From an uncultured Bacilli bacterium (GTDB lineage Bacteria; Bacillota_I; Bacilli_A; RF39; UBA660), in assembly GCA_963931185.1 (NCBI GenBank), contig OZ006981.1:295910-359909 (forward strand): a DNA stretch of 64,000 bases, in the 5' to 3' direction. A model generated the notes under the pieces. It ran no database searches. It was not told the origin of the DNA and worked only from the letters and a program-made list of their open reading frames with translations. The position numbers and the translations under genes are program-made. Shown piece by piece: positions 16,212 to 28,030 of the stretch. Positions within the stretch are counted from its first letter, which is position 1. Every line of letters starts with the position of its first letter.

Positions 16212-16260
16212 TGGTGGGGCGTTAGGGATTCGAACCCTAGACCCACTGATTAAGAGTCAG
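16212..16260 (-). other. 3' half of the disrupted host tRNA-Lys(CUU) gene, including the 13-bp att core (16248-16260)
   Basis: Minus strand reads CTGACTCTTAATCAGTGGGTCTAGGGTTCGAATCCCTAACGCCCCACCA. This is a T-arm, acceptor 3' strand and CCA that pair perfectly with the 5' half at 26172-26198. Confidence 0.8.
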
Positions 16261-16404
16261 AGGGCTTACTTCCCTTTTTCTAAGGCTCCACCATATTGTC
16301 AAAAAACTTAAGCAACTTATTTTTCCCTTATTTTACGGGGCTTTGCTTGGTTTGTTGTATTTACTATAGCATTTTTTAGTTGGCTCTACAATAGCCTTTT
16401 TTTT

Positions 16405-16432
16405 GTTGTGGGTGCCGAAAAGGTGCCGAAAT
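16405..16432. promoter_or_regulatory. Candidate integrase arm-type sites, left end (GGTGCCGAA x2)
   Basis: GTGGGTGCCGAAAAGGTGCCGAAATG direct repeats between the att core and the int stop. The same 9-mer family recurs at the right end. Confidence 0.45.
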
Positions 16433-16446
16433 GTTAAAATCGTGTC

Positions 16447-17562
16447 TTAATTGATACTCAATGCACCATTTAACATGTTAGCAACCTCGGTTCTATTTGC
16501 TTGGAAAATGTGAGAGTAAATGCCTGTTGTTACTGCCATAGAAGAATGACCCATTCTTTCTTGTATCAATTTTGTGTGAACACCTAGTGCAATTTGTAAA
16601 CTTGCTGAACTATGTCTCAATGAGTGAAAGTTCATTTTTGGTAGTCCATATTTAACTGCTACTTTTTGAAATATTTTGCCACAAGTGGTTGGATACATAG
16701 GTTTCCCGTCTTTTGCTAGGAACAATTTATTGTTTGCTTTCCAATTATTTGATAAAGATAACTCCTCTTTGTAGGCTTTTAATATCTCAATAGTTGTATC
16801 GGTTAATACCATTTTTCTTGTTGATGTATCGTTCTTTGTTGCCTTTTCTACAATTTCGCCTTTAATAACATCTAGCGATTTATTGATAGTTAATACTTTG
16901 GTATCAAAATCAATATCGTTCCAAGTTAATGCCAAAATCTCACTTCTTCTTGCTCCCGAGTCTAGTGCTAGAACAATAAGTGCTTGATATTTTAGACACT
17001 CATTTTTTAACCCATTTAATAATGTATGTATTTGCTCTAGGTCGTAACACTCGGCAAGATGTTTTTCTTTTTTGGGTCTAGGTATATCAATATTAGGGTT
17101 AGTTTCAAGTAGTTTCCATTTAACGGCTTGTGTAAACATTAAATTGATTAAGTTGTAATAATGTAATAAAGTGTTATTTGTTACAACTTTTTTTCTTGTG
17201 CCATTTTTTAATTTTTTATATAGTTCCATTAAAGTAAAAGTTTCAATATCTTTTAGTTGCCAATTACCAATATAGCCATTGATTTTTTCTAACATTGACT
17301 TGTATCCGTCCAAAGTTTTTACACCGACATTTTCTTCACAATAGTTACGAATAAAGAAGTTCCCAAAATCTTCAAAGGTCATATTTTTGCTATCAACAAC
17401 AAAGCCACCTTTTGCATATTGTTGCTTGATTTCAAACTCTCTTGTTTCGGCTTGTTTTTTCGTTCCCTCAAAAATCTCCGTTTTTCTCTTTCTTTTTCCG
17501 TCTATATTGTAGCCAATTTCTGCTATTATTTTATATTTATTTTTTGATAGTTGTTTTATCAT
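16447..17562 (-). CDS. int: Site-specific tyrosine recombinase (phage/ICE-type integrase)
   Basis: N-terminal arm-binding-like domain (KNKYKIIAEIGYNIDGKRKRK). C-terminal catalytic HSLRHSSAS...HSSMAVTTGIYSHI (R, HxxR, Y). GGAGG RBS before MIKQLSK. Confidence 0.85.
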   Translation of the reverse strand: MIKQLSKNKYKIIAEIGYNIDGKRKRKTEIFEGTKKQAETREFEIKQQYAKGGFVVDSKNMTFEDFGNFFIRNYCEENVGVKTLDGYKSMLEKINGYIGNWQLKDIETFTLMELYKKLKNGTRKKVVTNNTLLHYYNLINLMFTQAVKWKLLETNPNIDIPRPKKEKHLAECYDLEQIHTLLNGLKNECLKYQALIVLALDSGARRSEILALTWNDIDFDTKVLTINKSLDVIKGEIVEKATKNDTSTRKMVLTDTTIEILKAYKEELSLSNNWKANNKLFLAKDGKPMYPTTCGKIFQKVAVKYGLPKMNFHSLRHSSASLQIALGVHTKLIQERMGHSSMAVTTGIYSHIFQANRTEVANMLNGALSIN

Positions 17563-17635
17563 TTTTCGTTCCTCCAATCATTTGATAAAACAATCTCTAT
17601 CTACTTATAATTATACCATATTTTCCTTGTTTTTC

Positions 17636-17833: not shown

Positions 17834-17939
17834 TTGTTAAACCTCCAATTTTTTGATTTTCCGTTCGAACAATTAGAGTTTACCTTTAACAAAAGCCTCA
17901 AATCTCGTACAAGTTTTTTGATTAAGTGTTCCATTTTGA

Positions 17940-18230
17940 AAACTAAAAAAAGCCCGTAATATAAGGGCTAGAGAGATTTACTTGTCCGATTTTTCGAGTA
18001 ATAAGTTTTAATTTTGTTATGATATTTTTTGATAAGTTGTGATACTTTGTGATAGTTTATGATACTTTTTTCGCCCAACACCCTATATATATAAATAAGG
18101 AAAAAATACGGGGCTAGCAAAATCAAAAAAAATGAAAATATTTTATACTTATTTTTGACCTTTTAACTCGAAAAATCGGTATTAAAAAACAAGAAAAAGC
18201 CCGTAAGTAAAGGGTTTTCATACTTTCAAA
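17940..18230. promoter_or_regulatory. Highly structured ORF-free control region (hairpins, inverted repeats, iterons)
   Basis: AAGCCCGTAA(T/G)ATAAGGG hairpins at 17947-17972 and 18198-18222. Inverted repeat GTCCGATTTTTCGAGT (17984-17999) / ACTCGAAAAATCGG (18164-18177). GTGATACTTT-type iterons at 18019-18066. Confidence 0.5.
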
Positions 18231-18375
18231 AAAGAACACTTTTACTTGTTTTATGATACTTTCTTTTAGGTATTTTCTTGGTAAGATGTAATCACAAACG
18301 AAGCAAGTCGACTTAAAAGTTTGTAAAAAAAATGTTAGAATAGTGGTAACCCCACAAATGAAAGGAATGATTAAA

Positions 18376-18861
18376 ATGACTAACAAAGAACCAAGAACTG
18401 TTTTTATAGGAAGTGTTGAAGAACTTAAGGAGGTTATAAAAGAAGCCCGTGAATTAGAAAAAAATAAAAATGCAATGAAAGAGAAAGTAAAAGTATCTAA
18501 TAAAGACTTAAAAAGATTTGAAGAAGAATATAAGATTTGGATAGAGAAAATCAATAATGCTATGAAAAAACATAACTCTGATAAGTTTGATAGCGAAAAT
18601 AGTGATTTAGAAGATATATTACTAATCGACTATGAGTTATATCTAGGCAAAAAAATGGAAGATATTTTCAATGAGTATGAATATTTATATGATAGCATAG
18701 ACGATATGATTTATATTATGAAAAATACAGGTTTTATAATTGCACCATTTATAATAAGTGATAGAACTATGTTATTAGATACTATTGAAAGTTTTGAAAA
18801 TGGCGATTATGATGTTGAAGATGGTATTAAAAGAGAATATTTTAATTTAAATAACTATTAA
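18376..18861 (+). CDS. Island cargo protein A, unknown function (acidic C-terminus)
   Basis: 161 aa from MTNKEP with an AAAGGA RBS; followed by a hairpin terminator at 18868-18898. Confidence 0.55.
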   Translation: MTNKEPRTVFIGSVEELKEVIKEARELEKNKNAMKEKVKVSNKDLKRFEEEYKIWIEKINNAMKKHNSDKFDSENSDLEDILLIDYELYLGKKMEDIFNEYEYLYDSIDDMIYIMKNTGFIIAPFIISDRTMLLDTIESFENGDYDVEDGIKREYFNLNNY

Positions 18862-18867
18862 AATAAA

Positions 18868-18898
18868 GGTTATCTTATATGAGATAGCCTTTTTTCGT
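18868..18898 (+). terminator. Hairpin terminator after cargo gene A
   Basis: GGTTATCT-tatatg-AGATAGCC stem followed by TTTTTT. Confidence 0.5.
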
Positions 18899-18906
18899 GG
18901 TATAAT
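18897..18906 (+). promoter_or_regulatory. Extended -10 promoter element (TGnTATAAT) for cargo genes B-C
   Basis: GTGGTATAAT, the same 10-mer as at 21248-21257; lies 10-20 nt upstream of the B gene RBS. Confidence 0.5.
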
Positions 18907-18927
18907 TAAGGCATGGAGGCTTTAATT

Positions 18928-20076
18928 ATGGGAAAAAGACACAATACCTTATCGGACGATATTTTTCGCAATAGCAAGTATATAAACACTTTAGAACAAG
19001 CACTTGAAATTGACGACTTTAGAAAAGAATACAAAGAACAATATGACATTATGCTTGAAGTATATAAAATGCTTATCACAATAAACAATATAATATTCGC
19101 TGATAGTAATAAATCTATCAATGATAAAATATACGAAATGGAACTTGAGTTTGAAAAAATTGTTGGGGAACAAGTTGACGAAGAAAGCGACGAAAAAAGA
19201 AAACATAAATATAGTGTAAGAACTTTAAAAGGCTTGATAGATAGTAATACGAGATACTTATTCAATAAGTTTGTTGAGTGGTATGATTATTTAATGAACT
19301 TTAACAAATTAGATATGGTTAAGCAAGAGGTCGAAGAAGAAATGAAAAGACTTGAAAGCATTGACTTTGACAAAGTTGTTAAAGGTGGTCTACTTTATGA
19401 GAAAAATAAAAATAGCAACTATAAAATCTATACAAGCAAACTAGATTATCTATTCCTTAACAATAAAGATGTATGGAAAGAATACAAGCAAGACTTTTAC
19501 GACACATACGGAATCCAACTAACGGATCGAGAGAAAAACGATATTTACTTTGTATTTAAGTTAATTGCTTATGCAAATAATGGTATTGTAAAATTACTAT
19601 TTCAAGACGAAATAAAAGACTTTGAATTAACCGAAAAAGACAATGCCGAAGATTATTTCAAAGCCTATCTAACATCTTTAAATATAGATATAAAAGATAA
19701 TAGAAAGTTTATGAGTAAAGCCGACATCTTTTTAAATGAGTTGCTGATAACTAACAATGTTATTATAGAACAATTAGAAAATGACACTAAAAACGAGCAT
19801 ATCATTGATATATCACATATTGAGGTTGAGCCTTTTGTTGCAAATTATGACTTATACTTTTTCTATGTAAATATGGAAAAGATAACTACGGGCTTATATG
19901 AGTTTACTATCAAAACTGATGTTATAGTTAAGATTATCAATGACTTAAAAGAAATCTATAATCTTATGTATGACAATGTGCCTACTATCACGGACGAAAA
20001 ACAAGTGCAAGAGGCTTTTTCTAAAATACAAAATATAATTGATAGAAATAAGAAAATGTTTGAGAGGTTGAGTTAA
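18928..20076 (+). CDS. Island cargo protein B, unknown function
   Basis: 382 aa from MGKRHNT with a GGAGG RBS; no nucleotide-binding or nuclease motif recognised; stop overlaps the gene C start (TAATG). Confidence 0.6.
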   Translation: MGKRHNTLSDDIFRNSKYINTLEQALEIDDFRKEYKEQYDIMLEVYKMLITINNIIFADSNKSINDKIYEMELEFEKIVGEQVDEESDEKRKHKYSVRTLKGLIDSNTRYLFNKFVEWYDYLMNFNKLDMVKQEVEEEMKRLESIDFDKVVKGGLLYEKNKNSNYKIYTSKLDYLFLNNKDVWKEYKQDFYDTYGIQLTDREKNDIYFVFKLIAYANNGIVKLLFQDEIKDFELTEKDNAEDYFKAYLTSLNIDIKDNRKFMSKADIFLNELLITNNVIIEQLENDTKNEHIIDISHIEVEPFVANYDLYFFYVNMEKITTGLYEFTIKTDVIVKIINDLKEIYNLMYDNVPTITDEKQVQEAFSKIQNIIDRNKKMFERLS

Positions 20077-20795
20077 TGAAATCAATAAATGTTGTTAAGA
20101 TGTTAGAGGAAGAAGAAAAAACAAAGGCAAAAGAACGAAAAAGCACGGATGCTGAAACACTATTAAAAGATATAATATGGAATTGTATTGATAACTTTAT
20201 AATGCCCTATGTGAAATCAAAAATTGAAATAACGGAACACGAGCAAGTCGTATATGAAGATAACCTTTTTAATTTATTAGTTAAGCATAATGACTTTACG
20301 GAAGAAGATAGTATCGCCTTTGACGAGGAAGAAAGAAACTTTTTAAATACAAGCAATAGGAAAGTTAAAGTTGATATGGGCAAACGATATGCTGAAACAA
20401 TTATAAGAACACATACACTTGACGAAAAAGTGGAAGAATATTATATCAAGTATACAAAGCCTATGCTTAAGGAATTACAAAAACAAAATGTTATTATCTA
20501 TGATACTGAAGCATTAGATAATAAAACAAAAAGTGCTACCACTAAAATAGATAAATTAGTAAAAAAGATTATTACTGATAAAGCCAAAGAAAGCAAGATG
20601 TATTCGCTTTTTAAAAAAATATTCGGTAATGAGTTTATAGAAAAAAATGATGTTATCTTTAGTGATAACAAAGAACAAAAGGAAAAGTTTTGTAATTGTA
20701 TCAAGACTTATATAGAAAATAACTACGATAATATTGACTATAAAGCCATTGATAACATTGACTTTGCTGATATGAACGAGTTTAAACTCGATTAA
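20076..20795 (+). CDS. Island cargo protein C, unknown function
   Basis: 239 aa; translationally coupled to B; followed by a strong terminator. Confidence 0.6.
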   Translation: MKSINVVKMLEEEEKTKAKERKSTDAETLLKDIIWNCIDNFIMPYVKSKIEITEHEQVVYEDNLFNLLVKHNDFTEEDSIAFDEEERNFLNTSNRKVKVDMGKRYAETIIRTHTLDEKVEEYYIKYTKPMLKELQKQNVIIYDTEALDNKTKSATTKIDKLVKKIITDKAKESKMYSLFKKIFGNEFIEKNDVIFSDNKEQKEKFCNCIKTYIENNYDNIDYKAIDNIDFADMNEFKLD

Positions 20796-20797
20796 AG

Positions 20798-20822
20798 AGG
20801 TTTTAAGCCTCTTTTTTGATGT
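20798..20822 (+). terminator. Rho-independent terminator after cargo gene C
   Basis: AGAGG-ttttaag-CCTCT hairpin followed by TTTTTT. Confidence 0.6.
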
Positions 20823-20924
20823 TTTAAACTTTGGTATATATAAATAACACTCCTAACATAAATCATTTAAATAGTAGGCAAAAAATGGCTATTTTCGAGC
20901 ATTTAAAACATGTGATACACACCT

Positions 20925-21176
20925 TTACTTGTTTTCGTCTATGGGAGCAAATAACTCTCTTATATCTATACCTAAAATCTTTGCTAAATGGTAAAGACTA
21001 CCTACTGAAATAGTTTGAAATACTTTGTCGCTTTCGAGGTTGCCAATAAAACTTAAAGCATAGTTGCTTGCCTCGGCTAATCGTTCTTGGGTAAAGCCTT
21101 TGTCTTTTCGTAATTTTTTCAAGTTTTGACCTATCACATAGTAGATATAATTTTCATCGTTTTTGTTGTCATTCAT
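20925..21176 (-). CDS. XRE-family (Cro/CI-type) HTH transcriptional regulator
   Basis: LKKLRKDKGFTQERLAEASNYALSFIGNLESDK HTH; divergent from the 21279 operon. Confidence 0.75.
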   Translation of the reverse strand: MNDNKNDENYIYYVIGQNLKKLRKDKGFTQERLAEASNYALSFIGNLESDKVFQTISVGSLYHLAKILGIDIRELFAPIDENK

Positions 21177-21247
21177 AGCCTCACCACCTATATATAAATT
21201 ATCTCAAAAATAAAGTTTTAACTTTATCTATGGTTCGTGGATAAAAT

Positions 21248-21257
21248 GTGGTATAAT
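21248..21257 (+). promoter_or_regulatory. Extended -10 promoter (TGnTATAAT) of the XRE-divergent operon
   Basis: TGTGGTATAAT sits 22 nt upstream of the gene D ATG. Confidence 0.55.
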
Positions 21258-21278
21258 GTTAGTGAAAGGAGTTTGTTT

Positions 21279-21737
21279 ATGCTAACTAAAGATATTTTTG
21301 TAAAAGGTTTAACTACTGTTACCAAAGAGGATTTGAAAACTTATTTAGTCTTTGTTCAACAGTATTTTGATGTAATAGATGAATATTGTCTAAAAGTCCA
21401 AGAGACTCAAAGTGCTATCTTAAATCAAAAGCCAGATACGAATGACCGAGAGGCTGTAGAAGTTTTAATTATGGATAAGTTTAAAAGTGATGAAATGAGC
21501 AGATTATTAAAGGACTATGATAGAACAGAAAGATTAACAAAAGAGTTAGAATTATTGAAAAGAAATTTTAGAACATCAGAAAGAGATATTTTATGGAATT
21601 TAGAATCTTTTGACCGAAAAAGTAATTATAGACTTTATGGTTGTCTAAAACAAGTTGAACGTGATTATGAAGAACTTGAGACATTATTAACAGAAGTCGA
21701 TAAATTCACTACTGAGAGTCACAACTATCACTTTTAA
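21279..21737 (+). CDS. Island protein D, unknown function
   Basis: 152 aa from MLTKDIF with leader GAAAGGAGTTTGTTTATG. Confidence 0.5.
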   Translation: MLTKDIFVKGLTTVTKEDLKTYLVFVQQYFDVIDEYCLKVQETQSAILNQKPDTNDREAVEVLIMDKFKSDEMSRLLKDYDRTERLTKELELLKRNFRTSERDILWNLESFDRKSNYRLYGCLKQVERDYEELETLLTEVDKFTTESHNYHF

Positions 21738-21753
21738 CTAAGGGAGTTTGTTT

Positions 21754-22257
21754 ATGAAAAGAAGAAGTTATTTTAAATTGACTGGTAAAGAAAAACAAAT
21801 GGTAAATAATATTATGTTAAAACAAGAGGGTTATTTTAGTATGTTTAATATATCTATTATGACAATATCAGTATTGTGTATATTTATATCTATTTCGCAA
21901 AATAATATAATATTCGTATTGATAATATCTCTTATTATGTTTTTGGTGTTAAGATTTAAAATGTTTTATTATTATTTAAAGCATACTGAAATAAATTTTG
22001 ACATCAATAGTAAAGAAAACAATGAGATGTCAAAATATACTGATAATCAAACAAAGTTTATTTTAGGAATATTTGGGGTAGTAATGGTAATCGGTGCTAT
22101 GGGGTTGCTTGGTGTTTTTGATAACAATGACACTGGTGGAAGTTCCGACAATGGGTATAAAACTAATTGCTATCCAAGAAGTGATGGAAAAATATGTTGC
22201 ACATCTTGTAAAAAGACGAGTTATGGCGATATAGGTTGTGGAACAACCTGTAATTAA
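21754..22257 (+). CDS. Two-TM membrane protein with Cys-rich C-terminal tail
   Basis: Leader AGGGAGTTTGTTTATG nearly identical to that of gene D; two hydrophobic helices; C-terminus CYPRSDGKICCTSCKKTSYGDIGCGTTCN carries 7 Cys. Confidence 0.5.
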   Translation: MKRRSYFKLTGKEKQMVNNIMLKQEGYFSMFNISIMTISVLCIFISISQNNIIFVLIISLIMFLVLRFKMFYYYLKHTEINFDINSKENNEMSKYTDNQTKFILGIFGVVMVIGAMGLLGVFDNNDTGGSSDNGYKTNCYPRSDGKICCTSCKKTSYGDIGCGTTCN

Positions 22258-22275
22258 AAAGGAGGGAATTAAAAA

Positions 22276-22572
22276 ATGGCTTTAATTAAGTGTAGTGAGT
22301 GTGGCAAAGAGATAAGCGACAAATCTAAAAAATGTATTTATTGTGGCAACCCTATTACAATAATTGCAATAAATAGACATTGTGAATTGTGTGGTGGAGA
22401 AATAGACTTAAATAATTGTGAATGTTTAAGATGTGGTTTTACTGATATATCTCTTTTGAATAAGAAAACAAGGGACGAAAGTCTTAAAAGGTTTAGGGAA
22501 AAAATGGAAGAAATAGCAACAGGAAGTTCTAAAAGTTTTAGAAAGAGAGAAAAAGAAAATGAAAAAAATTAG
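22276..22572 (+). CDS. Double zinc-ribbon protein
   Basis: CSECGK...CIYCG and CELCGG...CLRCG (two CxxC pairs in tandem); AAGGAGGG RBS. Confidence 0.55.
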   Translation: MALIKCSECGKEISDKSKKCIYCGNPITIIAINRHCELCGGEIDLNNCECLRCGFTDISLLNKKTRDESLKRFREKMEEIATGSSKSFRKREKENEKN

Positions 22573-22930
22573 TTTAGTATTATTATGTGGGGTTATTTTA
22601 TTAGGTGTATGTGGTTGTGGTAGTAAAGAAGAAAAATTAAATGAAATGGAAAATATCATTTATAATTCAATGATTAAAACAAGTAAAACAGCCGATAGCC
22701 CATCTGATTTAAGGTTAATTGAGGTATTTAAAAAAGATGGTAATTTTTATATAAATCTTAATAAAGGAGATGGAACATATTGCTATTATGTGAACACATC
22801 AAGAGAAGAATTATCTTATGAATATGGCACTTGTCATATAGCAGAATTGCAAAACGAAACTTATGATGATGTTTCTATTTCAAAAGTAAATAATAAATAT
22901 AAAAAATATGTTGAGGATATGGGATTATGA
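22559..22930 (+). CDS. Lipoprotein, unknown function
   Basis: Signal peptide with lipobox LLGVCGC. Confidence 0.55.
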   Translation: MKKISLVLLCGVILLGVCGCGSKEEKLNEMENIIYNSMIKTSKTADSPSDLRLIEVFKKDGNFYINLNKGDGTYCYYVNTSREELSYEYGTCHIAELQNETYDDVSISKVNNKYKKYVEDMGL

Positions 22931-23751
22931 AAAAAAAGAAAATAATTGTTGGGATAGCATTGTTAGTAATAATTTGTGTAATATTATGTATAGTGTTTAT
23001 GTTCAATAAAAATAATGGTTTATTAGAGTTTGACAAAGTTATATCAAGTGGGACAAAAACGGTAGTTATTTTTGAAAATAATCAAGCCCAAGAAGAAAAG
23101 TTGAAAAATATTTTAGAAGAAAATAATGTCAATTTTATTTCTATTGATGTATCCAAATTAAAAGATAATGATAAAAATAAATTGAAAACGACATTAGACT
23201 TGGAAAACTTAACTACTTATTATGGAGCAATTATTGAAAATAATGATGTTTTACGAAAAATATACTTAAAAGATATTGAAACAAATGATAATGAAAAAAT
23301 TATGCAAATGCTTGCTTATTATGGGGTATTAGAAAACTCAAAAGAATATTTAAACGATTACAACTATAAAATGGGTGTTGAGGCACTTAATAATGGTCTA
23401 ATTTATAGTGCTAATAGTTACTTGAAAAGTGTCGATAAAGACTATAAAGATGTCAATGAATTATTAAAAGATAAAAGATTTTTTCTATTAAATAAATATC
23501 ATTATGATTACCCAGATAATATTAGAAAAATGACTTTTCAATATTTACCAAATGATAAAATATATCACGATAGCTTTGTTGGAGAAGAATACAATCAAAA
23601 AGCATATGTTAAAAATGATATTATTTATATATGCACTCGTAGTTGTGATAGTGAATATGCTAACACAAGAGAATTTTTACATATAGATTATGTTAATGAA
23701 ACAGAGTTAAAATTTAAGGAGTGGGATTTTGTTTTAAAAAAAGTTGACTAA
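22927..23751 (+). CDS. N-terminally membrane-anchored protein, unknown function
   Basis: MKKKKIIVGIALLVIICVILCIVF anchor plus a ~240-aa extracytoplasmic domain; ATGA overlap with the lipoprotein gene. Confidence 0.55.
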   Translation: MKKKKIIVGIALLVIICVILCIVFMFNKNNGLLEFDKVISSGTKTVVIFENNQAQEEKLKNILEENNVNFISIDVSKLKDNDKNKLKTTLDLENLTTYYGAIIENNDVLRKIYLKDIETNDNEKIMQMLAYYGVLENSKEYLNDYNYKMGVEALNNGLIYSANSYLKSVDKDYKDVNELLKDKRFFLLNKYHYDYPDNIRKMTFQYLPNDKIYHDSFVGEEYNQKAYVKNDIIYICTRSCDSEYANTREFLHIDYVNETELKFKEWDFVLKKVD

Positions 23752-23837
23752 CTTTATATAGGACGAGGCGACCGATTTTTGAAAAGTCAAGCCATAAATT
23801 ACTAAAGCCCACCCCGTGTATGTGTCTATATAAAAAT

Positions 23838-23868
23838 CAAAGTTGTGCGATGCACAACTTTTTTATAT
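23838..23868 (+). terminator. Rho-independent terminator ending the 21279-23751 operon
   Basis: GTTGTGC-gat-GCACAAC hairpin followed by TTTTTTAT. Confidence 0.6.
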
Positions 23869-24018
23869 TGTCAATAGGTTTGGTGCTGGAATATATGGGC
23901 TTGGTGCAACTTTAAGCACTACCATAGCAATTATACTATGCTTGCACTAACTCTTGTTAAATGCCTTATATTGCCTTAATATGAGGTGTTTTTTTATGCC
24001 TCGATCCGAGTGCTTGCT

Positions 24019-24110
24019 ACCCTATAAATTGATATAAGTATCTTTTGTATATTTTTGGTTGTTCTTGTTTCCTCTTAAGTAAGGGTAAGTGTTAGTGGCT
24101 ACCCTATAAG
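24019..24110. repeat. 12-bp direct repeat GCTACCCTATAA (x2, 80 bp apart) in an ORF-free, GC-richer region
   Basis: Copies at 24019-24030 and 24099-24110, upstream of the second Xis-like gene. Confidence 0.5.
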
Positions 24111-24129
24111 ACACGGGAGGTATGTATCA

Positions 24130-24294
24130 ATGAATTATTACACTACAAAGGAAATAAGCGAGATTTTAGGACTATCAATTAAGACTATTCAAAAGTTAAT
24201 TAGAACAAGACAACTAAAAGCATTTAAAATTGGTAATCGTTTCATAGTCGAAGAAAGCACACTAAAAGACTACATCAATGCAAGACAAGTATAG
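24130..24294 (+). CDS. Second excisionase/MerR-like small HTH protein
   Basis: 54 aa, MNYYTTKEISEILGLSIKTIQKLIRTRQLKAFKIGNRFIVEE; GGGAGG RBS; below the ORF-track size cutoff. Confidence 0.55.
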   Translation: MNYYTTKEISEILGLSIKTIQKLIRTRQLKAFKIGNRFIVEESTLKDYINARQV

Positions 24295-24372
24295 ACTTAA
24301 CAAGCACTAGATAACATTTTTATAATTGTATCAATGAAAGGAAAAAACTATTTTAATGGGGGGGCAAGATAA

Positions 24373-24771
24373 ATGGCAAAAGTTGATATGGAGCAAGCCT
24401 CGTGGCAAGATGTATTGCAAGCAATAAAAGAAAGCAATATCAATTATGGCAAAGACTATGACATTTATACTTATTATCACTATGACAATGGCAATATAGT
24501 TGGGGTTGTTTATGGTTGGTTTTATGATAGGTGCTTATACATTGACATTGTTTTTGTTAGTGCCGAGTATCGAGGCAAAGGAATTGCTACATCAATGCTT
24601 AAGAGAGTAATACAAGAAATAAAAAGCAAAGACATTGACAATATTATTGTTGAGTTGGTGCAATATAAAGGAAAATATCTACTTGCAAATATTCTTGTCC
24701 GTCTTGGTTTTTGTTTGCATAGTCTATATTACATCTTAAGGCAAAGAGTTATCTATTATATGTCGTTGTAA
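24373..24771 (+). CDS. GNAT family N-acetyltransferase
   Basis: VSAEYRGKGIATSMLKRVIQE acetyl-CoA-binding motif (R/Q-x-x-G-x-G/A). Confidence 0.65.
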   Translation: MAKVDMEQASWQDVLQAIKESNINYGKDYDIYTYYHYDNGNIVGVVYGWFYDRCLYIDIVFVSAEYRGKGIATSMLKRVIQEIKSKDIDNIIVELVQYKGKYLLANILVRLGFCLHSLYYILRQRVIYYMSL

Positions 24772-24931
24772 TTAGATAATAGATAGATAAACACATAATC
24801 TTTGTTAGTTTGCCGTCTAATTAAAAGAAAAAACGGCTTTTCAATATAAGCCATTTTTGTTCAATTTTACGAATAATTATATGCCACCATTGACTTATGC
24901 CCTTTTTGGCACATATTTAGGAGGTTTGAAA

Positions 24932-25450
24932 ATGAAAAAACAAGCAATAGGTTTTATCGTTGACGAACACGGAGTTGTTAATAAAGAGATATACATAGGC
25001 GACCGAGTTCGTATTATACGAGAAAGCCAAAGACAACATTTACAAGATTTTAAAAAGACAAATAAAAGCAAAACATATTGTAAGGTATTTTGTAAGGCAA
25101 GCGATATATTGGCAAGTCTTAATTTAACAGCAAGTGAATATAAACTAATTTTTGCTATGCTCGGTCATATCGGTTTTGCCGAGTTTAGTGGCTACCTTAT
25201 AAAAGTTCAATGCAATATGTTTTGTGGTTACTTAAACGGCGAGGAATTAAAAAGTATTGCTAATATGCAAGATAGGACATTTTGGCGAGCCATTGATAGT
25301 TTAGTAAAAAAAGAGATTATCGCCATTGAGAAAGTTGGACGAGAAAATCATTTTTTGGTTAATCCGTTTATATTTATGAAAAATGACGAAATAACTCGTA
25401 CCTTATTCAATTTGTTTTGTGATACAAAGTTCAATTATTTAAACGAATAA
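24932..25450 (+). CDS. Putative winged-helix replication/regulatory protein (RepL-like?)
   Basis: AGGAGG RBS 7 nt before MKKQAIGF; 172 aa. Family assignment is uncertain. Confidence 0.4.
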   Translation: MKKQAIGFIVDEHGVVNKEIYIGDRVRIIRESQRQHLQDFKKTNKSKTYCKVFCKASDILASLNLTASEYKLIFAMLGHIGFAEFSGYLIKVQCNMFCGYLNGEELKSIANMQDRTFWRAIDSLVKKEIIAIEKVGRENHFLVNPFIFMKNDEITRTLFNLFCDTKFNYLNE

Positions 25451-25494
25451 TTGCTCTCACTTAATTAGTAGGCCATTACAAAAAGAGATAAACT

Positions 25495-25752
25495 TTACTT
25501 GTCTATCTCTTTTTTGCTACTTAAGTAACTACGAATTATTGCTACTTGCACGGGGTTTTGTTCTTGTATTTCTTTTGCGAACATATACTTTAATTTTTCA
25601 AAATGTTTTTCTAAAAGTTTTCTATCTTTTTTTGATAGTTCGCACTCGTCTAGTATTTGACGAGTTGTTGCCATTTCAAGAACAATGTTTTTAAACTCCT
25701 TTGTAATAGTAAATTGTAAGTCTTTTAAGTTTTCAATATCTTTTTCGTCCAT
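25495..25752 (-). CDS. Small hypothetical protein
   Basis: 85-aa charged helical protein. Confidence 0.4.
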   Translation of the reverse strand: MDEKDIENLKDLQFTITKEFKNIVLEMATTRQILDECELSKKDRKLLEKHFEKLKYMFAKEIQEQNPVQVAIIRSYLSSKKEIDK

Positions 25753-25837
25753 TTCTTCTTAACTCCTATCTTATATTTTTTATTTGCTCCTTATCAATGT
25801 TTTATCAAAAAAATTGGTTAATAGATAGAGATTTTAG

Positions 25838-25872
25838 AAAAGGTGCCGAACGGGTGCCGTAAAAGGTGCCGT
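25838..25872. promoter_or_regulatory. Candidate integrase arm-type sites, right end (GGTGCCGAA/GGTGCCGTA/GGTGCCGTC)
   Basis: AAAAGGTGCCGAACGGGTGCCGTAAAAGGTGCCGTC: three copies of the 9-mer family seen at 16408-16432, about 290 bp from the right att core. Confidence 0.45.
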
Positions 25873-25877
25873 CTTAT

Positions 25878-25913
25878 GATAATTTGTGATACTTTATGAT
25901 ACTTTTGTAATTT
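25878..25913. repeat. TGATA(A/C)TTT iterons (x3)
   Basis: TTATGATAATTTGTGATACTTTATGATACTTTTG; the same iteron family as 18019-18066 and 18248-18258. Confidence 0.5.
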
Positions 25914-25995
25914 TCTAAAAAAGTCATTTTTCACTTAAAAATACATTTTTTTATATCAAAATTTGATACTATTTTTTCAAAATAATTTTAAAATC

Positions 25996-26044
25996 AAAAA
26001 ATAAAAAAGTCTAGCAAACCCTTATAATTGCTAGGCTTTTTAAT
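25996..26044 (-). terminator. Terminator downstream of the element-borne tRNA-Lys
   Basis: TAGCAA...TTGCTA hairpin followed by a T-run on the minus strand. Confidence 0.45.
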
Positions 26045-26052
26045 ATTCAACA

Positions 26053-26128
26053 TGGTGGATTGTTAGGGATTCGAACCCTAGACCCATCGATTAAGAGTCG
26101 ATTGCTCTACCAACTGAGCTAACAATCC
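26053..26128 (-). tRNA. tRNA-Lys(CUU), element-borne intact copy
   Basis: GGATTGTTAGCTCAGTTGGTAGAGCAATCGACTCTTAATCGATGGGTCTAGGGTTCGAATCCCTAACAATCCACCA. Perfect acceptor stem GGATTGT/ACAATCC, anticodon loop CTCTTAA, CCA encoded. Confidence 0.85.
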
Positions 26129-26158
26129 ATTTTTAAGGCTCCTTAACTTGGAACAACC

Positions 26159-26198
26159 GATTAAGAGTCAGTTGCTCTACCAACTGAGCTAACGCCCC
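26159..26198 (-). other. 5' half of the disrupted host tRNA-Lys(CUU) gene, including the att core copy (26159-26171)
   Basis: Minus strand reads GGGGCGTTAGCTCAGTTGGTAGAGCAACTGACTCTTAATC, then diverges into non-tRNA sequence (GGTTGTTCC...). Confidence 0.8.
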
Positions 26199-26272: not shown

Positions 26273-26572
26273 TTACAAATTACTATTTATCAATGTTTCT
26301 ATGTCCTTATCTGTATTGATATAATTATTACAAACAGTTTCTAAATATGATATATATTTCTCATTACTAGCAATAATTTCTTCAAATTTATTATACAAAT
26401 TTTTCAAATCATTAATTACTACATCACTTGTTTGAGATAACCAAAAATTTGGTATTTGATTAGCTTTAGTCTTAACATTATCAAACAATGTAGCAATATT
26501 TAAATTTTCTTTTTTTAATTCTGCTATTTTCTCCTTTAATCCATTGAAATCTATTTTTATATTACTTGTCAT
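26273..26572 (-). CDS. Small helical protein, WXG100/Lap-like (uncertain)
   Basis: 99 aa, predicted all-helical; sits next to a WXG100-like gene. Confidence 0.4.
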   Translation of the reverse strand: MTSNIKIDFNGLKEKIAELKKENLNIATLFDNVKTKANQIPNFWLSQTSDVVINDLKNLYNKFEEIIASNEKYISYLETVCNNYINTDKDIETLINSNL

Positions 26573-26873
26573 TATTACTTCTCCATTCTAAATTACTAGA
26601 CAAATCTTTATCAATATTTCCATGTTTAATCGCCATTTCTTTTAATAATTCTCCTTTCTCTATCATAAAAAGTTCTACTTCATTTATGCTCACTAAAAAT
26701 TCATTGTAATTTTCATAAAACATTTCAGAATCAATTCCATTCCATAAAGCTTTAATATCTTCGTTTGTTTTTTTCATATTATCAACAATATTTTTTAAGT
26801 TATTACCTTGCAAATTAAAAAAAGCTCCAATTTTGTATAATTCTTTACAATTTATTTTAAAAATATTTGCCAC
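26562..26873 (-). CDS. WXG100-family (ESAT-6-like) protein
   Basis: 103 aa with a central W-N-G (ALWNGIDSE) at about residue 43 between two predicted helices. Confidence 0.5.
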   Translation of the reverse strand: MANIFKINCKELYKIGAFFNLQGNNLKNIVDNMKKTNEDIKALWNGIDSEMFYENYNEFLVSINEVELFMIEKGELLKEMAIKHGNIDKDLSSNLEWRSNNDK

Positions 26874-28030
26874 TATTCTATTTCCTCCCTATAAAAAATA
26901 TTAGATAAAATTTTTTGATTATTCTCCATATCTAAATTACAGAACATATTAAAAAATTCTTTTGAATTTATAATTGGTAATAAATAGTTTCTTGAATCTC
27001 CATTAAGTATCTGTTCAGAACTAGTATTGTTGTTTTCTGCTACTACATCAATCATAGTTTTCAAAGCAGAAACACTATTAGAATCCAAATTATAAATATT
27101 TTTGCCTTCATATATATTTAATATTTTTTCTCTAAACCTAAATACATTATCACTTGAAATTGAATCTATATAATTTAAAGCATTATTAAAATAATTAAAG
27201 TTATTATAAAGAAGTTGTTGATTTTCTGCATTACTTATCAAAGAATTATAATCAGTATTATTAATATTTGCTATTTTTGTAAAATAAGAATTCAAAAACT
27301 CTATATTTTCTGAATTTATTAAATTTATATTACCAGAAGAATATAGTTTAACCAATATTTGTTTCAAAGCAGAAATATCCATATTAAGTAAACTTTTTTT
27401 CAATTCATCAGTTATATTAATAGAATTTAGTAATTCTTTTTTTACATTCTCTATTTTGATATCATCATTAACTATATCAAAAAAAGTTGAATTTGAAGCA
27501 GATAGAAACTTTGATAAGACAACCGATATTCCTATATAGTCTATCAAATTAAAATCATTAACGCCCATTTGATTAGAATTTATACTAGCATTATAAAAAT
27601 TATTATTAACTGTAGTATTGGCTTTTCTATACGAATTGTTAACTGAATTAGTCGTATAATCATTATTTATAACTTTATTATTAGAATATGACTCATCTAC
27701 CATAATCTGACTATTCTTACTATTATTAATACTATCGTTAATATTATTAATAGTCAAAATTATTGAATTAATAGCTGTAGACAAAGATACACAATAATTT
27801 TCTAGAATACCATATGAAGAAAAATATCTTAAAGCTGAACTGGTAATTCGTTCTGAAGTGAGATTGAGATTATTAACTCTTGACTTCCAATTAGAACATA
27901 AATCTGTTATAGAAGCAGAATTTAAAAATATTTCCTTTTCAGGTAATGAATTTAAATTCATTAAGTCTTCGCCGCTGTATTCAATATTCTCAGTATAATT
28001 CTGAATAGAATTTTCGTTCATAAAAACCAC
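26873..28030 (-). CDS. Asn/Ser-rich low-complexity protein, possible secreted substrate
   Basis: 385 aa with no enzymatic motif; first gene of the three-gene minus-strand unit that includes the WXG100-like genes. Confidence 0.4.
   Translation of the reverse strand: MVFMNENSIQNYTENIEYSGEDLMNLNSLPEKEIFLNSASITDLCSNWKSRVNNLNLTSERITSSALRYFSSYGILENYCVSLSTAINSIILTINNINDSINNSKNSQIMVDESYSNNKVINNDYTTNSVNNSYRKANTTVNNNFYNASINSNQMGVNDFNLIDYIGISVVLSKFLSASNSTFFDIVNDDIKIENVKKELLNSINITDELKKSLLNMDISALKQILVKLYSSGNINLINSENIEFLNSYFTKIANINNTDYNSLISNAENQQLLYNNFNYFNNALNYIDSISSDNVFRFREKILNIYEGKNIYNLDSNSVSALKTMIDVVAENNNTSSEQILNGDSRNYLLPIINSKEFFNMFCNLDMENNQKILSNIFYREEIE

Follow-up and report, generated by a model that had tools for sequence, protein, structure and literature searches.

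B and C, a two-gene hallmark operon in a previously undescribed family of integrating elements from uncultured gut Bacilli

The window analyzed here, a stretch of 64,000 nucleotides from contig OZ006981.1 of an uncultured Bacilli bacterium, carries three consecutive genes, A, B and C, inside an integrative element of about 9.8 kb located at a tRNA-Lys gene. Comparison with related loci showed that B and C form a fixed operon in the backbone of a previously undescribed family of integrating elements of ~9–10 kb from uncultured gut Bacilli, of which this operon is the hallmark. An original prediction, made from the nucleotide sequence of the window, had described A, B and C as cargo of an integrase-excisionase (int-xis) island, possibly a defence system composed of a sensor and an effector. 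The placement within such an island was confirmed, and the reading of the three genes as cargo had to be divided, as described below.

Regarding function, we favour, with a probability of roughly 55%, the interpretation of B–C as an outward-facing binding module of the element backbone. The two proteins, as their genetic coupling suggests, would act jointly as a stoichiometric complex, by binding rather than catalysis, and their target would be external to the element, either a factor of the host or a different mobile element.

Distribution and genomic context

The family loci compared (about 27: L005, L007–L020, L021–L024 and L025–L032) were obtained from reference genomes, assemblies and a metagenome motif scan. 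In ~27/27 of them B–C lies in the same place, and no other context was found; this single position, shared by all relatives and seen nowhere else, characterizes B–C as a hallmark and not as variable cargo. The common architecture comprises a recombinase, a conserved non-coding region, slot 1, B, C, the cI repressor gene on the opposite strand, slot 2, a gene of the HTH_17 family, slot 3, a Rep-like gene and a gene for an 85-aa protein. Two types of recombinase are seen, a tyrosine integrase accompanied by the excisionase Xis and a large serine recombinase, and B–C occurs with both: one B/C allele (95–98% identical) is paired with a serine recombinase in L013 and with a tyrosine integrase in L027. 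The Rep-like protein of the family members belongs to one of two families. In L021 and L024, B presents 31–32% identity and is still followed, at 0–1 nt, by a gene of similar size. The downstream gene of L021 matches the C-family profile (E 4e-12), while that of L024 resembles C by eye, below the profile threshold.

Loci from reference genomes belong to metagenome-assembled genomes (MAGs) of uncultured gut 'Bacilli', in addition to Clostridium sp. CAG:914 and a 'Ca. Scybalousia' MAG. A collection of 5.8 billion proteins contains 395 clusters of B at 90% identity, all unnamed or annotated as 'hypothetical', which, judged by record names, come from various gut metagenomes; several of the hosts are represented by contigs or genomes of ~1–1.5 Mb. 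A library of 1.84 billion representatives returned 55 representatives of B, about 20 of them full length, with identities from 31% to 75%, and C presented 24 clusters with 34–97% identity. No description of the B–C element family was found in the literature.

Organization of the B–C operon

The open reading frames, sizes and layout given for A, B and C in the original prediction were all recovered (Table 1), and the proposed translational coupling of B and C also stands. The TAA of B and the ATG of C overlap by one base (TAATG, 20074–20078), in all loci the two codons are spaced by −1 to +2 nt, and the ribosome-binding site (RBS) of C, GAGAGG/GAAAGG, is contained within the final codons of B. 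This junction is the best-conserved DNA of the operon, with 82–87% identity where the flanking coding sequence is unalignable.

The terminator after A, the extended −10 element TGGTATAAT and the terminator after C, which had likewise been predicted, are present. The hairpin after A (18866–18891) has a folding energy of −13.8 kcal/mol (z = −4.1), and 0/200 shuffled sequences folded as well; the terminator after C (20794–20814, followed by a T-run) has −12.0 kcal/mol (z = −3.1). Promoter-like sites occur at chance frequency in this AT-rich window (71 found vs 74.6 expected). Despite this lack of enrichment, the block formed by hairpin, T-run, TG(G/C)TATAAT, GGAGG and ATG upstream of B is conserved in 14/14 aligned loci, and its stem shows compensatory C-G to A-T changes in L012, L018 and L019, beyond G-U variants in L013 and L014, which places these signals beyond chance.

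A putative cI operator, the palindrome TAAAGTTTTAACTTTA (21211–21226), lies in the divergent promoter region of the cI-like repressor. No copy of this palindrome was found near the B promoter, which fits the expression of B–C in the integrated state, an expression that would not depend on the operon controlled by cI. These predicted signals mark B–C as an autonomous transcription unit, with its own promoter and RBS, translational coupling and a terminator.

Selection and exchange of alleles

B and C are under purifying selection. The ratio of nonsynonymous to synonymous substitution rates (dN/dS) among close pairs is 0.10–0.31 for B and 0.10–0.20 for C, and int, xis and cI present values in the same range. 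The identities between the window and its relatives are uneven along the element. In L015, int, xis and cI are 86%, 95% and 88% identical to those of the window, against 50% for B and 35% for C; in L016, cI is 96% and B 44% identical; and in L009, C and cI reach 97% and 98% and the Rep protein is of the other family (fam14 vs fam8). The dS of B between the window and L015 is saturated (3.2), while int and cI have values of 0.68 and 0.98; the difference points to old alleles that were exchanged and not to a faster evolution of the protein.

A similar pattern was observed within B. Among 119 close homologues, residues 1–60 and 371–382 are almost invariant, and residues 61–150 (window 19108–19377) are hypervariable, with saturated dS and two main allele types. 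Saturated dS in this segment, with near-identity in the rest of the gene, argues for segment exchange by recombination. Judged from these alignments, the B–C alleles evidently reassort independently of the int/recombinase, cI and Rep modules.

This reassortment bears on the target of the module. A target that is an element-specific DNA site or protein is not expected when alleles combine freely with different recombinases, repressors and Rep proteins, and the target is probably external; functions that have to match the element (integration, immunity, replication) are unlikely for the same reason. B–C could still serve the element internally, in replication, segregation/stability or regulation, as the hallmark conservation of the operon might indicate, and one version of this idea takes C as a sigma-like protein and B as its partner. 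We consider it very unlikely, since B–C alleles do not co-vary with the Rep family, the repressor or the recombinase, as functions tied to sites of the element should. Evidence specific to the sigma version is also unfavourable: none of the 19 C-family members (0/19) matches Sigma70_r2 or r4 at E <= 10, the hhalign probability of the C profile against an E. coli RpoE sequence is 0.4%, and C is acidic, with a C-terminus devoid of a helix-turn-helix (HTH).

Sequence and predicted structure of the proteins

B (46 kDa) and C (28 kDa) are soluble, acidic and helical proteins without catalytic, NTP-binding, DNA-binding or membrane motifs and without a known fold. Together with A, they are hydrophilic, have isoelectric points (pI) of 4.6–5.2, and lack transmembrane (TM) segments and clusters of Cys or His. 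AlphaFold2 models built from the family alignments predict for B a largely helical structure that includes a small sheet of three strands at residues 150–170 (pLDDT 84, pTM 0.65), and for C a compact, all-alpha one (pLDDT 91, pTM 0.82). The most conserved segments are the C-terminus of B and the N-terminus of C, and the diverse B alignment has no conserved stretch of 7–10 columns. The invariant residues of B are Y18, Y95, L142, D148, N218 and F312; those of B and C include no His and form no recognizable catalytic motif, and neither family conserves a His or a Cys.

Searches of A, B and C against Pfam, PHROGs, PADLOC and NCBIfam returned no match, in agreement with the absence of Walker, nuclease, HTH and methyltransferase motifs reported in the original prediction, and when all members of the B and C alignments were scanned against family libraries, only scattered chance matches appeared. 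The B and C profiles against PDB sequences gave best E values of 0.17–0.29, and Foldseek of B against BFVD returned nothing (best E 0.33). The folds of B and C did not match phage structural or replication proteins, nor satellite hijack or packaging proteins. Ordinary phage structural or replication proteins had been proposed as a check on the cargo idea, and none of A–C was assigned to them by sequence or fold.

Some candidate relationships were discarded. A TINF2_N match in 9/19 C-family members was taken as compositional; HEPN was rejected for lack of a conserved R-x(4-6)-H motif, or of any conserved His, in both families; and B and C are not paralogues (hhalign probability 0.1%).

The composition of these proteins recalls acidic mimics of proteins or DNA, and B–C, perhaps with A, might be anti-defence or establishment proteins that neutralize restriction or other immunity on entry. 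All three are acidic, helical, soluble and non-enzymatic, they adjoin the recombination module of a mobile element, and their alleles diversify and reassort. B and C are, however, large in comparison with known mimics, no similarity to ArdA, Ocr, KlcA or the anti-restriction families of PHROG and Pfam was detected, and the element has no defined transfer origin or leading region. We see only a slight chance that this explanation is correct, and maintain the interpretation of B–C as an outward-facing binding module.

Gene A as an exchangeable cassette

Gene A occupies slot 1 as an exchangeable cassette, between a conserved promoter, leader and RBS on one side and a conserved terminator on the other. 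Its start is at 18376 and not at the GTG at 18343, since in the alignment of relatives the conserved leader and the RBS AAAGGAA end at the same ATG. For most relatives, nucleotide homology with the window stops at the start codon of A (18378) and restarts at its stop codon (18859–18861), and slot 1 is filled by unrelated small genes (fam9, fam11 and fam16). The description as cargo thus applies to A, which is swapped precisely at its ATG and stop codon, and does not extend to B–C, whose position is constant. In addition, as A is replaced by unrelated genes in most relatives, it is not an obligatory partner of B–C, and the proposal of A plus B/C as one sensor-effector unit was abandoned.

A is represented by three clusters in the collection of 5.8 billion proteins. 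Within the close lineage, copies identical or nearly identical to A are common: its cluster has 29 members, and 41 contigs carry the exact sequence. The sole other lineage with an A-like protein in slot 1 is that of L018–L020 (124 aa, 58% identical). A relationship with the slot-1 protein of L005 was also considered and rejected, as the two proteins proved unrelated on comparison.

The leader of slot 1 (18279–18375) contains a candidate extended −10 element TGGTAAGAT (18279–18287), a hairpin ACAAAC...GTTTGT (18294–18324), the motif GTGGTAACCCCAC and the RBS mentioned above. Its stem co-varies (TAAAC/GTTTA in L012 and GCAAGC/GTTTGC in L018), and the leader may be a riboregulatory or attenuator element; it had no match in Rfam. 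Further upstream, an inverted pair, CCGATTTTTCGAG (17986–17998) and CTCGAAAAATCGG (18167–18179), separated by ~170 bp, encloses an AT-rich tract and GTGATA repeats. The two arms are kept in nearly all relatives, whichever the type of recombinase, and the structure might be an origin or a pair of operators.

Proposed role of the B–C module

Scans with Pfam, PHROG and domain libraries revealed no relaxase, terminase or capsid gene in the element of the window. B and C are the sole large conserved proteins without an assigned role, which makes them the best candidates to exploit or block a helper. By analogy with phage satellites, the outward-facing module could be a device for satellite-type hijack or interference, by which the element exploits or blocks a phage or conjugative element resident in the same cell, an option that we rate somewhat below even odds. 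A more ambitious proposal, which we hold as rather doubtful, is that B–C defines a new class of small hitch-hiking elements, satellite-like or mobilized in cis and widespread in uncultured gut Bacilli with small genomes, in which a two-protein, non-enzymatic complex of novel fold would hijack or block the partner, with residues 61–150 of B setting the partner specificity.

Several observations weigh against the external binding role and its extensions. Neither a partner nor a helper phage or conjugative element is known, and a physical interaction of B with C is predicted from their genetic coupling. The B promoter is constitutive in look, and the hijack genes of known satellites are usually induced by the helper. 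Persistence does not require the intact pair, given that L016 and L026 have a truncated C and L022/L023 have none. The element region 17850–25840 and the proteins B, C and Rep are absent from the phage collection, B is absent from the plasmid collection, and a B peptide and two conserved DNA motifs of the element are absent from IMG/VR; with these sequences missing from the three sources, nothing shows packaging or transfer. The only match in the phage and plasmid collections was one of 34 bp in the right-end repeat region (window 26159–26192). Finally, the hallmark status of B–C is also compatible with a role in protecting the host.

Such a protective role was implied by the defence link of the original prediction, and is possible. 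B–C would then be a constitutive anti-phage system, acting by superinfection exclusion or abortive infection and paying for the upkeep of the element by protecting its host. The operon lies between int-xis and the cI-like repressor, with promoter and terminators, in a moron-like manner; its alleles are deeply diverse, with the hypervariable segment of B, and independent of the element's own modules. On the other side, the evidence expected of a defence system was not found. A, B and C had 0 matches each in PADLOC-DB v2 at E <= 1, with chance-level values for their neighbours (E 0.005–0.03), and no effector (nuclease, NADase, protease, kinase, pore/TM or NTPase) was detected in A–C by Pfam, NCBIfam and PDB searches. 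B–C is also present in all family members rather than patchy, it never leaves this backbone, and its divergence reflects exchange of alleles with saturated dS, without raised dN/dS. We regard an anti-phage system as unlikely, and the defence link as it was proposed is not sustained; the outward-facing binding module continues to be the preferred interpretation.

If B–C exploits or interferes with phages or conjugative elements, the mechanism would be new and would have no homologue in the known repertoire of satellite, defence and anti-defence proteins, and it would help to explain gene flow in a little-studied part of the gut microbiota; the B–C element family is common in gut metagenomes. 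Should B–C turn out to be just a maintenance factor, the value of the finding would be modest and descriptive. In both cases, what had been described as cargo of unknown function becomes a defined and testable object: a compact family in which three slots are exchangeable and a single two-gene module, without a known fold, is invariant.

Extent, ends and gene content of the element

The window has a GC content of ~26%, and its GC skew is flipped within the island, from ~18 to 25 kb. The gene order of the element is int, xis, slot 1, B–C, the cI-like repressor, variable genes including zinc-ribbon proteins, HTH_17, GNAT, Rep-like and the 85-aa gene. The coordinates are presented in Table 1.

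Table 1. Features of the element in the window and of the serine-recombinase/Mob_Pre arrangement in relatives
Feature	Position	Strand	Basis
Left boundary: tRNA-Lys(CTT) 3'-half copy, ending with common core GATTAAGAGTC	16212-16258	-	Homology start of L007 and L015 at 16211/16212
Tyrosine integrase (Phage_integrase and SAM-like N-terminal domains)	16447-17577	-	Domain matches
Excisionase-like HTH_17 protein, 65 aa	17636-17833	-	Domain match
Non-coding region from xis to slot 1, ~490 bp	17888-18375	+	68-87% conserved in relatives
Gene A, 161 aa, pI 4.6, without family; single-gene cassette in slot 1	18376-18861	+	
Terminator hairpin after A and T-run	18866-18896	+	Fold and conservation
Extended -10 promoter of B-C, TGGTATAAT	18898-18906	+	Promoter scan, conservation
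RBS of B, GGAGG	18915-18919	+	
Gene B, 382 aa, pI 4.9; hallmark protein of the family	18928-20076	+	
Gene C, 239 aa, pI 5.2; translationally coupled to B	20076-20795	+	
Intrinsic terminator after C	20794-20822	+	Terminator scan and fold
cI/Xre-type repressor (HTH_3/HTH_19), convergent with B-C	20925-21176	-	Domain matches
Slot 2, variable genes: 166, 169 (2 TM), 98 (zinc ribbon), 123 and 274 aa	21237-23751	+	
Second HTH_17 gene	24130-24294	+	Domain match
GNAT acetyltransferase	24373-24771	+	Domain match
Rep-like winged-helix protein	24857/24932-25450	+	Weak Rep3_N, DnaD_N and phage-O N-terminal signals
Backbone gene fam6, 85 aa, conserved	25495-25752	-	
Right end: GGTGCCG repeats (25842-25871), GTGATA repeats (25874-25916), tRNA-Lys segments	25842-26198	-	
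Serine-recombinase/Mob_Pre arrangement in relatives	L008 3909-8529; L016 3523-8533; L013 15986-19432; L017; L029; L012 17899-21134		

Slots 2 and 3 differ among the members of the family. Slot 2, downstream of the divergent promoter of the repressor, is highly variable across relatives (L008–L019) and often contains two to four paralogues, in which a common N-terminal zinc ribbon of ~25 aa is fused to differing and frequently membrane-spanning bodies; L015 has an inserted DDE transposase and L012 an SH3_3 protein. Slot 3 holds the GNAT gene in the window, L016, L018 and L019, and an unrelated gene for a protein of 112–120 aa (fam7) in most relatives.

Three tRNA-Lys(CTT)-related segments with the common core GATTAAGAGTC are found at 16212–16289, 26053–26128 and 26134–26198. 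The first corresponds to a weak tRNA call of ARAGORN and Rfam (16212/16215–16289, ~32 bits), the second to the complete tRNA-Lys(CTT) and the third to another segment similar to a tRNA-Lys 5' half; the Rfam scores are 73.6 bits for the complete tRNA, 32.2 for the left hybrid and 25.6 for the right hybrid. The acceptor ACGCCCC of the left 3' half pairs with the 5' half GGGGCGT at 26192–26198, whereas the complete tRNA has the acceptor GGATTGT/ACAATCC and does not pair with the left 3' half. From this pairing, the complete tRNA-Lys seems to be located inside the right end of the element, and the target tRNA to be split. The Rfam scan of the island detected only tRNAs.

Repeats of GGTGCCG(A/T)A occur near both ends of the island (16411–16430 and 25842–25871), and also at both ends of L005. 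Repeats of GTGATA, phased by 10 bp, occur upstream of slot 1 (18017–18069) and near the right end (25874–25916). The alignment shows GTGATA repeats in the relatives with tyrosine integrase and Xis but not in the serine-recombinase loci L008, L010 and L016; this association with the type of recombinase suggests that they are arm-type sites of Int or Xis rather than Rep iterons.

The members with a serine recombinase sit between fam12, a small gene adjacent to a tRNA, and a unit composed of a serine recombinase (SerRec), in some cases fam22, and a Mob_Pre relaxase. Mob_Pre was found only beside these serine-recombinase relatives, and the fam12-SerRec-fam22-Mob unit stands alone beside the tyrosine-integrase element of L012. 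The relaxase appears to belong to this neighbouring and separate unit, whose independent occurrence beside L012 suggests that two elements accreted in tandem at a single site. Such an arrangement hints at a possible mobilization in cis of the B–C element, which is devoid of a relaxase.

Directly outside the island, the region 26273–28030 (− strand) encodes two proteins of ~100 aa that match WXG100 below the threshold (E 1e-4 and 8e-3) and then an Asn-rich protein of 385 aa, and may be a cluster of type VII secretion substrates.

Comparison with known systems

The B–C module has no known relatives, and the element that carries it resembles phage satellites and the integrative mobilizable elements (IMEs) of Firmicutes, while lacking the defining features of each. 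With the phage satellites, such as the phage-inducible chromosomal islands of Gram-positive bacteria (SaPIs and EfCIV583) and the P4-like satellites, it shares the size of ~10 kb, a tRNA-type site, int and xis, a cI/Xre-type repressor with a divergent operon, a small protein similar to replication initiators, the absence of virion and lysis genes (no structural or lysis PHROG matches) and a mosaic of modules. B and C, as non-enzymatic helical proteins without a known fold, are also comparable to Sid/Psu and CpmB of satellites. On the other hand, the element has no primase-helicase (Pri-Rep), terS, cos/pac module, capsid-remodelling homologue or AlpA, and no satellite hallmark gene (terS, cpm, ppi, sid, psu, capsid or primase-replicase) was found in it by Pfam or PHROGs. 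B–C is placed between xis and the repressor, convergent with the latter, which differs from the arrangement of satellites; moreover, no helper is known, the element does not occur in viral collections, and its proteins have no similarity to those of satellites in sequence or fold.

Elements of the Tn4451/Tn4453 type carry a large serine recombinase and a Mob/Pre relaxase. The B–C element is similar to these and to the streptococcal IMEs in its size, in the exchangeable tyrosine or serine recombinase and in the integration at a tRNA gene, and some relatives adjoin a serine-recombinase and Mob_Pre unit. Unlike the IMEs of Firmicutes, of which the streptococcal ones have been reviewed (PMC5704250), neither the element of the window nor the other members with tyrosine integrase contain a relaxase; no oriT has been identified either, though no search was aimed at it.

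Prophage morons and the superinfection-exclusion (Sie) genes of lysogeny modules, as lambda rexAB/sieB and lactococcal Sie2009, are comparable to B–C in forming an autonomous unit of promoter, gene and terminator beside int and the repressor, presumably expressed when integrated. However, morons are patchy and B–C is universal in its family, and Sie proteins are usually associated with membranes, unlike the soluble and acidic B and C. The moron pattern fits gene A better than B–C. The same applies to defence systems, which move between hotspots: their character of patchy and variable cargo is not seen in B–C, and is seen in gene A.

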